IMG/VR virus record: IMGVR_UViG_2660238524_000006
Origin: a virus
Lineage: Duplodnaviria; Heunggongvirae; Uroviricota; Caudoviricetes
Strand: one strand, 5' to 3'
Length of the DNA stretch: 41,028 bases
The translations under genes and the position numbers were made by a program. A model generated the notes under the pieces. That model made no database searches, had not been told where the DNA came from, and saw only the letters and a program-made list of their open reading frames with translations. This document shows positions 25,185 through 27,455 of this stretch, in pieces. Numbering within the stretch: the first letter of the stretch is position 1; every line of letters starts with the position of its first letter.

Positions 25185-27455
25185 ATGAGTGTGGCGACAT
25201 TACGTGAACTGATTATTAAAATCTCGGCAAATTCCCGGTCATTCCAGTCAGAGATCTCCCGGGCTTCGCGTATGGGGCAGGATTACTACCGTACCATGCA
25301 GAACGGAGGCCGGCAGTCCGCTGCTGCATCCCGTGAAATGCGGCGTGCACTGGCAGAAGTGACGGATCAGATAAATACAGCTAAATCTTCGGCACTGAAT
25401 ATGGCGGGGGCATTTGCCGGGGCTTTTGCTACCGGTCATCTTATTTCTTTCGCCGATGAGTGGAATTCAGTAAATGCCCGTCTGAAGCAGGCCTCACAGT
25501 CCAGTGATGATTTTCAGGCATCACAGCGTGAATTAATGGCGATCAGCCAGAGAACGGGGACGGCGTTTTCTGATAACGCCAGCCTTTTTGCCCGTTCTGC
25601 AGCTTCCATGCGGGAGTATGGTTACAGTTCTGAGGAGGTACTGAAAGTCACCGAGGCGATCTCCACGGGCCTGAAATTATCCGGTGCCAGTACAGCAGAA
25701 GCCAGTTCGGTGATCACGCAGTTCAGTCAGGCACTGGCGCAGGGAGTGCTGCGCGGTGAAGAGTTTAACTCGGTGAATGAGAACGGCGATCGTGTTATTC
25801 GTGCGCTGGCTGCGGGAGTGGGGGTTGCCCGTAAGGATCTGAAGGCCATGGCGGATAACGGAAAGTTGACCGCCGATAAGGTTGTTCCTGCACTGATTAG
25901 TCAGCTTGGGGCATTACGTGATGAATATGCGGCAATGCCTGATACGGTTTCATCCTCTGCAACCAAAGTTGAAAACGCCTTTATGGCCTGGGTTGGTGGT
26001 GCGAACGAGGCAAGCGGAGTGACGAAGACGCTCTCCGGTGTGCTGAATGGTATTGCAGGCAATATTGACACTGTGGCAACCGCTGCCGGTGCTCTGGTTG
26101 CCGTCGGGGTAGCCCGATATTTTGGCAATATGGCGTCTTCTGCTGGATCTGCAACTGCCGGATTAATTACTGCAGCCAGAAACGAAGTGGCTCTTGCGGA
26201 AGCGCAGCTCCGGGGGACACAGATAGCAACAGCCAGGGCGCGTGCGGCGGTTTATCGTGCGCAACAGGCGGTTGTTGCTGCTCGCGGTACCGAAAGGCAG
26301 GCAGCCGCAGAAGCGAAACTGGCTGCTGCCCAGGCATCACTTACCCGTAATATTGCGGCCAGAACAGCAGCACAGACAACGCTGAATACTGTCACGTCAG
26401 TGGGAAGTCGTCTGTTAAGTGGAGCACTGGGACTGGTTGGTGGGGTGCCGGGGCTTGTCATGCTGGGGGCCGCGGCCTGGTACACGATGTATCAGAATCA
26501 GGAGCAGGCCAGAGAATCTGCACGCCAGTATGCCGCAAAAATCGACGAAATTCGCCAGAAAACGTCGGCAATGTCGCTTCCTGAAGCGTCAGATAATGAG
26601 GAAAAGACGCGGCAGGCACTTGATGAGCAAAACAGGTTAATTGACGAGCAGAAAAGTAAGATTAAATCCTTACAGGAAAAAATTGCTGGCTATCAGTATG
26701 TGCTGGCAAACCCGGGCTGGACAACCGATAACGGTTTTATGATTAACCACATGACGTCGGTAAAAACAGTCACAGAAGGGCTTGCAGAAGCAACAAATCA
26801 ACTGGCAGTTGAACAGTCCCGTCTCACACAAATGCAGGGCAAAGCGCAATCCATTCAGGATGTGCTTGCCGGGCTGGAGGAGCGGCGGGTTGCGTTGATC
26901 CGTCAACAGGCGGCGGAACAAAACAAAGCGTATCAGTCCCTGTTGATCATGAATGGGCAGCATACCGAGTTTAATCGCCTTCTTGGGCTTGGTAATGAAT
27001 TACTTCAGCAGCGACAGGGGCTGGTGAATGTACCGTTACGGCTACCACAGGCAACCCTGGATGATAAACAGCAGACCGCACTGAATAACAGCAAGCGCGA
27101 ACTGGCTCTGTCCCGCCTTAAGGGGGAAGCGCGTGAGCGTGCCCGACTGGGCTATGCTGCGGATGATCTCGGCTTTGTGGGAGAGGCGTATCAGACAGCC
27201 AGACAGAATTATATCAATAACTCACTGGATGCCTGGCGAAATAACCAGGCAAATAAACCCAAAGCGCATAAAAAGACCGAAGCGGAAAAAACAGAAGATA
27301 TTTATAAACGGCTGATTAAACAGCAAAAAGAACAGATAGCACTGGCAGGGCAGAATACTGAACTGGCTAAGATGAAATATCAGGTCAGTCAGGGCGAATT
27401 ATCAACCCTGTCAGAAGCGCAGAAAAAAACGCTTTTGCAGAATGCAGCACTGTGA
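25185..27455 (+). CDS. tail tape measure protein, N-terminal 756-aa reading frame
   Basis: Long Ala/Gln-rich coiled-coil ORF after G/T; terminates just after an A7 run. Confidence 0.8.
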   Translation: MSVATLRELIIKISANSRSFQSEISRASRMGQDYYRTMQNGGRQSAAASREMRRALAEVTDQINTAKSSALNMAGAFAGAFATGHLISFADEWNSVNARLKQASQSSDDFQASQRELMAISQRTGTAFSDNASLFARSAASMREYGYSSEEVLKVTEAISTGLKLSGASTAEASSVITQFSQALAQGVLRGEEFNSVNENGDRVIRALAAGVGVARKDLKAMADNGKLTADKVVPALISQLGALRDEYAAMPDTVSSSATKVENAFMAWVGGANEASGVTKTLSGVLNGIAGNIDTVATAAGALVAVGVARYFGNMASSAGSATAGLITAARNEVALAEAQLRGTQIATARARAAVYRAQQAVVAARGTERQAAAEAKLAAAQASLTRNIAARTAAQTTLNTVTSVGSRLLSGALGLVGGVPGLVMLGAAAWYTMYQNQEQARESARQYAAKIDEIRQKTSAMSLPEASDNEEKTRQALDEQNRLIDEQKSKIKSLQEKIAGYQYVLANPGWTTDNGFMINHMTSVKTVTEGLAEATNQLAVEQSRLTQMQGKAQSIQDVLAGLEERRVALIRQQAAEQNKAYQSLLIMNGQHTEFNRLLGLGNELLQQRQGLVNVPLRLPQATLDDKQQTALNNSKRELALSRLKGEARERARLGYAADDLGFVGEAYQTARQNYINNSLDAWRNNQANKPKAHKKTEAEKTEDIYKRLIKQQKEQIALAGQNTELAKMKYQVSQGELSTLSEAQKKTLLQNAAL

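Follow-up and report, generated by a model that had tools for sequence, protein, structure and literature searches.

The question raised by this locus is what divides a tape measure gene between two reading frames in the window, the whole 41,028-nucleotide stretch of viral DNA that was analyzed. The sequence-only reading had assigned the frame change to a run of seven adenines (A7) at 27423-27429, within CAG AAA AAA ACG and upstream of a stop TGA at 27453-27455, beyond which the protein appears to continue in the +1 frame as an ORF at 27442..28398; a genuine inactivating mutation as part of prophage decay, a slippage-prone tract and a homopolymer sequencing error were offered as alternatives. 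All these elements are indeed present in the sequence, and deletion of one A in silico yields, as predicted, an uninterrupted frame of 1070 codons. The position of the lesion did not hold: alignments with orthologs put the only indel 22 nt downstream, at 27451|27452, and the A7 run has the wild-type length.

The split gene and its prophage context

The window is a lambdoid prophage that combines an HK97-type head module with a lambda-type tail module, in an ST131-type isolate of E. coli. The head module lies upstream of the tail module, for which the gene calls and Pfam matches give the order major tail protein, Phage_TAC_1 (G), Phage_tail_T (T), the two tape measure ORFs and then M, L, K, I and J, the downstream genes being represented, respectively, by Phage_min_tail, Phage_tail_L, an NLPC_P60 protein (NlpC/P60-JAB), Lambda_tail_I and a gpJ-type tip protein. 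The gene order, the Pfam domains and the homology to lambda gpH are all those of a lambda-type tape measure gene. The features of the locus are as follows:

25191..27455, + strand: 5' tape measure fragment, lambda gpH-like (ORF, translation, Pfam, GenBank KLX03692.1)
27423..27429, + strand: A7 run encoding Lys-Lys (CAG AAA AAA ACG), of wild-type length and not the lesion (sequence, orthologs)
27451..27452, + strand: deletion junction, where the 20 bp CATCGACCAGAAAAAGATTC are missing (alignments with intact orthologs)
27453..27455, + strand: premature TGA, brought into frame by the deletion (sequence, alignment, translation)
27442..28398, + strand: 3' tape measure remainder in the +1 frame (ORF, translation, Pfam, gpH alignment, GenBank KLX03693.1)

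The 5' ORF (25185..27455) stops at the TGA at 27453-27455, and the 3' ORF (27442..28398, 318 aa) is in the +1 frame, which confirms the split. The 5' fragment consists of 754 aa when counted from GTG 25191, the start that is annotated in relatives and is preceded by GGAG 7 nt upstream, and of 756 aa when counted from ATG 25185; an exact database look-up of the 756-aa product gave no match, the databases starting this gene at GTG 25191. The product ends in QKKTLLQNAAL, that is, without an aberrant tail. The mechanically called 3' ORF opens at ATG 27442 with four non-native residues (MQHC) and consists of native codons from GAG 27454 on; no Shine-Dalgarno sequence was found upstream of ATG 27442. 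Both frames are open over a 77-nt overlap (27376-27452), within which the A7 run is located. Accordingly, the two ends of the ruler are not encoded in a single uninterrupted frame but are separated at 27451|27452.

The split also separates the domains of the protein. Pfam identifies TMP_3 (residues 84-272, 193.8 bits) and Phage_HK97_TLTM (395-686, 309.9 bits) in the 5' ORF and Tape_meas_lam_C (104-175, 55.1 bits) in the 3' ORF, all above the curated cut-offs, and the intact protein of E. coli M217 contains all three domains. Residues 49-317 of the 3' ORF align to residues 573-849 of lambda gpH (8iyk_H, E=3.4e-19). Going by its sequence, the window copy belongs to the lambda-type tape measure family as a pseudogene rather than as a functional gene.

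Over its right-hand 6.9 kb, the window matches ST131 genomes, among them EC958 and JJ1886, at 100% identity, and it ends in the host gene zinT (40378-41028, - strand), which places the right prophage boundary between approximately 39.3 and 40.4 kb. The left part (1-14 kb) is mosaic relative to EC958, indicating that the isolate is related to EC958 but belongs to a different strain. A search of the head and tail genes revealed no other net frame-breaking indels. The EC958 copy of the prophage carries, beside tRNA-Ser and mtfA, an integrase gene annotated as frameshifted (EC958 2178564-2179614, outside the window) and some early-region pseudogenes; given the frameshifted integrase, selection on the prophage had probably been relaxed already before the tape measure deletion.

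Several further features of the prophage were recorded. A segment of about 1.5 kb (9929-11457) downstream of the Q antiterminator gene is missing from this prophage in EC958 and M217 and contains an ORF (10398-11447) for a 349-aa N6/N4 DNA methylase (PF01555). Between Q and the lysis genes are two tRNA genes (11497-11572 and 11673-11747), which ARAGORN identifies as tRNA-Met (CAT) and tRNA-Arg (TCT), respectively, the CAT tRNA being annotated as tRNA-Ile by RefSeq in EC958. The iss gene, encoding a bor-like serum-survival lipoprotein, is at 15409-15702 on the - strand. Between T and the tape measure start, inside the late operon, there is a terminator-like hairpin, AACCGC-TTCG-GCGGTT, followed by T8 (25153-25176), with the T8 reading T9 in the Logan assembly of SRR1685365. 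An IS200C transposase gene (IS200/IS605 family, Y1_Tnp) is inserted at 35044-35502 between lom and the side tail fiber gene, identically in EC958 and other ST131 genomes, and the side tail fiber gene itself contains an internal tandem-like duplication (36165-36594, ~83% identity, offset 189 bp).

A 20-bp deletion downstream of the A7 run

When phage records and complete E. coli genomes were searched with the two ORFs by megablast, the full-length matches were always 20 bases longer than the query (3234 bases for the 3214-base query and 521 bases for the 501-base query). Phage vB_EcoS-689R5 and E. coli M217 encode the protein in a single 1075-aa ORF and have, besides the A7 run, an additional CATCGACCAGAAAAAGATTC at the place between window positions 27451 and 27452. 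This 20-bp gap, which corresponds to nt 2262-2281 of the 3228-nt gene and starts 22 nt downstream of the A7 run, is the sole indel relative to M217 over the whole 3.2-kb gene. As 20 is not divisible by 3, the gene continues in the +1 frame past the gap. In the intact gene, the bases of the TGA are out of frame, C GTG AGC being read as CGT GAG (ATT CGT GAG), whereas after the deletion they are read as CTG TGA; when the 20 bp are put back in silico, the native QKKTLLQNAALIDQKKIREQLAAY is recovered. The window copy thus differs from a near-identical intact ortholog by an indel that is not divisible by three and creates a premature stop, which makes it a deletion pseudogene.

The length of the A7 run, by comparison, is invariant among intact genes. 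A pattern scan of IMG/VR, in which A5 to A9 and an insert of 0-20 nt were allowed between the flanks, recovered 98 contigs, all 98 with A7, the 20-bp segment (in four minor sequence variants) and a continuous frame through the site. The tract is also A7, as in the window, in the intact genes of EC958 (WP_000224009.1, EC958_RS11145, 1075 aa), M217 and phage 689R5. The records of induced phages such as vB_EcoS-689R5, phi467 and Evi show 95-98% identity and share the A7 run but, unlike the window, have the 20-bp segment and one ORF of 1075 aa. The closest comparison is with EC958: positions 14120-41028 of the window align to this genome over 26,929 columns (26.9 kb) with 0 mismatches and one gap, the 20-bp deletion, so the two copies share identical DNA and the same A7, whereas only the EC958 ortholog contains the segment and encodes 1075 aa in one ORF.

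These comparisons bear directly on the possibility that the A7 run carries one A too many, through mutation or sequencing error, and that A6 is the true or ancestral state. The open 1070-codon frame that results from removal of one A is compatible with such an event, as is the A8 form that the tract takes in two further assemblies of this prophage, evidence that the tract can vary in public data. However, every intact ortholog examined has A7, the same as the window, and the 20-bp gap 22 nt downstream fully explains the frame change. Moreover, the one-A repair does not recover the native protein: it yields a non-native patch, QKK-RFCRMQHC-EQLAAY, i.e. QKKRFCRMQHCEQLAAY, in which RFCRMQHC takes the place of the native TLLQNAALIDQKKIR. 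The observation that had been put forward as a refutation, A6 in the raw reads, would not restore the gene: on the deletion background, A6 would leave 8 non-native residues in a protein that falls 7 residues short of the native length. An event at the A7 run as the cause of the split has, in effect, already been refuted by the ortholog alignments, and we assign it next to no probability. The comparison with orthologous tape measure genes, also suggested in the sequence-only reading, revealed A7 in every intact ortholog examined and a 20-bp deletion instead of a homopolymer lesion.

Among complete E. coli genomes, 895 carry the gene, and the deletion was found in none of them; the best matches are identical at 501 of 521 positions, the gap being the only difference. 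The same kind of pattern (A5-A9, gap of 0-20 nt) had no match at all, and hence revealed no deletion, among the GTDB species representatives, and the deletion junction was not found in the JGI metagenomes. Together with the zero mismatches to EC958, the lack of the deletion in the 895 genomes, the GTDB representatives and the JGI metagenomes indicates a very recent lesion that is private to this lineage.

As judged by inspection of the alignment with 689R5 and M217, there are no microhomologies or direct repeats at the ends of the deletion, and the placement of the gap is unique; CAGAAAAA and GCAGC repeats occur nearby but do not coincide with the deletion endpoints. That no repeats flank the deletion speaks against an origin by simple repeat-mediated slippage, and this candidate mechanism was set aside as unsupported. 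Another candidate, a 1067-aa protein of the same cluster that was considered as a compensated revertant, was ruled out because it is an intact natural variant with the native QKKTLLQNAALIDQKKIREQ.

Thus, the split is very probably caused by the 20-bp deletion at 27451|27452, a genuine, very recent and inactivating event in the course of ordinary prophage decay, and one of a type already known in kind. Among the alternatives originally listed, the genuine inactivating mutation is retained, whereas the slippage-prone tract and the homopolymer sequencing error find no support, the tract length being that of all intact orthologs.

Assemblies, slippage and other alleles

The 318-aa product is recorded in the GenBank assembly GCA_001030365.1 (scaffold KQ087679.1), to which the window is identical over the 20,957 bases retrieved; there, two E. 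coli proteins are annotated, KLX03692.1 ('hypothetical protein SK67_02645', 754 aa) and KLX03693.1 ('lambda family phage tail tape measure protein'). A Logan contig assembled from the raw reads of SRR2127531 is identical to the window at 11,467 of 11,467 bases and has the same deletion junction; this contig is recorded in 5 samples, which may represent the same strain as the GenBank assembly. The accessions of the assembly, run, scaffold and proteins had no match in the literature searched. It could be proposed that the isolate has an intact gene and that the 20-bp gap arose in assembly or sequencing, a proposal with which the lack of the deletion in the 895 complete genomes and in the IMG/VR, GTDB-representative and JGI metagenome scans would be consistent. 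However, the identical junction appears in a contig for which another pipeline had assembled raw reads on its own, a clean loss of 20 bp in non-repetitive sequence is atypical of short-read or homopolymer errors, and the other 26.9 kb are error-free compared to EC958. Given, in particular, the same junction in KQ087679.1 and in the separate Logan assembly, we consider an artifact quite unlikely.

A real deletion does not by itself imply a complete lack of full-length protein. In principle, RNA polymerase could drop one A, or the ribosome could slip by +1 on AAA AAA A, so that leaky or programmed recoding would yield some protein of ~1068 aa and the phage would be partly functional. The +1 frame is open from 27376, with the A7 run within the 77-nt overlap, a tract that the intact genes also contain but do not use for recoding, and transcriptional slippage on A runs can rescue frameshifted bacterial genes (PMC1088944). 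Such rescue, however, is documented mostly for runs of ~9 A, and the selection against slippage that is evident in many genomes likewise concerns runs of ~9 A (PMC1088944), compared to which A7 is shorter. Furthermore, the two-ORF layout is not conserved, the homologs being single ORFs and the split being private to this lineage; no stimulatory element was identified; and the rescued protein would contain, within a helical region, 8 non-native residues, two of them Cys. We therefore regard recoding as improbable, marginally more so even than an assembly artifact: the A7 run would lie inside the two-frame overlap by chance, and even low-level synthesis of a full-length product by slippage is hardly to be expected. 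If it did occur, the prophage would be leaky rather than dead, and the tract would represent a natural 'savior' slippage site that buffers a nearby deletion and leaves an 8-residue scar in the product.

The tail module does contain a tract that, by its sequence and location, is genuinely slippage-prone. The G gene ends in ...GTT AAA AAA AAG TAG (24831-24842), with the classic -1 slippery heptamer A AAA AAG at 24833-24839 and the T ORF (24854-25144) in the -1 frame. This heptamer corresponds to the G/GT programmed frameshift, the conserved -1 frameshift of the tail chaperone genes that was reportedly described by Xu, Hendrix and Duda in 2004. Like the tape measure split, it is a change of frame within this tail module, in its case at an A-rich slippery site; however, the G/GT frameshift, 2.6 kb upstream, is conserved and functional, whereas the tape measure split lacks conservation and results from a deletion.

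Other disrupted alleles of the same gene are found in E. coli. In an amber allele, TGG is changed to TAG at codon 682 (W682), which divides the gene into ORFs of 681 and 348 aa; this allele is widespread (91 index blocks, e.g. GCA_976942565.1), and several of the prophages that carry it also have broken K, I or J genes. In the A8 allele of the tract equivalent to 27423-27429, the products are of 761 and 327 aa; it is present in the NCTC assembly GCA_900449685.1, with no other difference from EC958 over 9 kb, and in a Logan contig of SRR1685365. Events of the class first proposed for the window are thus on record at this tract, but the window itself has none. The latter contig contains two further homopolymer indels (G3 as G2 and T8 as T9) and no substitutions, so that A8 may be a homopolymer sequencing error in this case; a true mutational hotspot at the tract was considered as another possible reading of the A8 allele. 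In GCA_901669775.1, a nearby T4 is shortened to T3, along with many other frameshifts, and this is probably a low-quality assembly. The W682 amber and A8 alleles resemble the window copy in that the gene is split and the C-terminal fragment is called separately, but the lesions are different and independent.

Predicted consequences for tail assembly

Nonsense mutants in the lambda H gene are tail-defective. The window gene resembles lambda H in its position, between the G/GT chaperone genes and M-L-K-I-J, and in the homology of its C-terminal third; it differs in that its intact form is longer (1075 aa compared to 853 aa for gpH), the N-terminal and central parts belonging to the TMP_3 and HK97_TLTM families. 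The lambda amber mutations are laboratory mutations, whereas the 20-bp deletion in the window arose naturally, and in a chromosomal prophage; in both cases, a premature stop would remove the region that, in lambda, is seated in the tail tip.

In lambda, tube length is determined by gpH, and in the virion the C-terminal helix of this protein (818-842) forms a trimeric coiled coil inside the tail tip, where the gpI trimer holds it (PMC10721106). By analogy, the course of events in the window prophage can be predicted. With the TGA just past the junction now in frame, translation would stop after residue 754 of 1075, so that the truncated protein would keep the N-terminal two thirds and lose the C-terminal third, the part with homology to gpH 573-849, which, going by the lambda structure, would include the tail-tip helix. 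The 3' ORF, having no ribosome binding site, would be produced at best as a separate fragment. The expected outcome is equivalent to that in a lambda H amber mutant, with neither tail initiation nor length determination. This failure of tail assembly is expected from lambda genetics and structure, and the window prophage would not be expected to give rise to infectious tailed particles unless the protein came in trans from another prophage.

With respect to method, the case illustrates that a nearby homopolymer is not proved to be the lesion when its editing opens the frame; here, comparison with a near-identical intact ortholog placed the lesion 22 nt further downstream and showed it to be of another kind. 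Beyond annotation, the significance of the deletion is small. For annotation, KLX03692.1 and KLX03693.1 should be merged as one pseudogene, and when the inducibility or the transduction potential of prophages is judged, this ST131-type copy should be scored as tail-defective.
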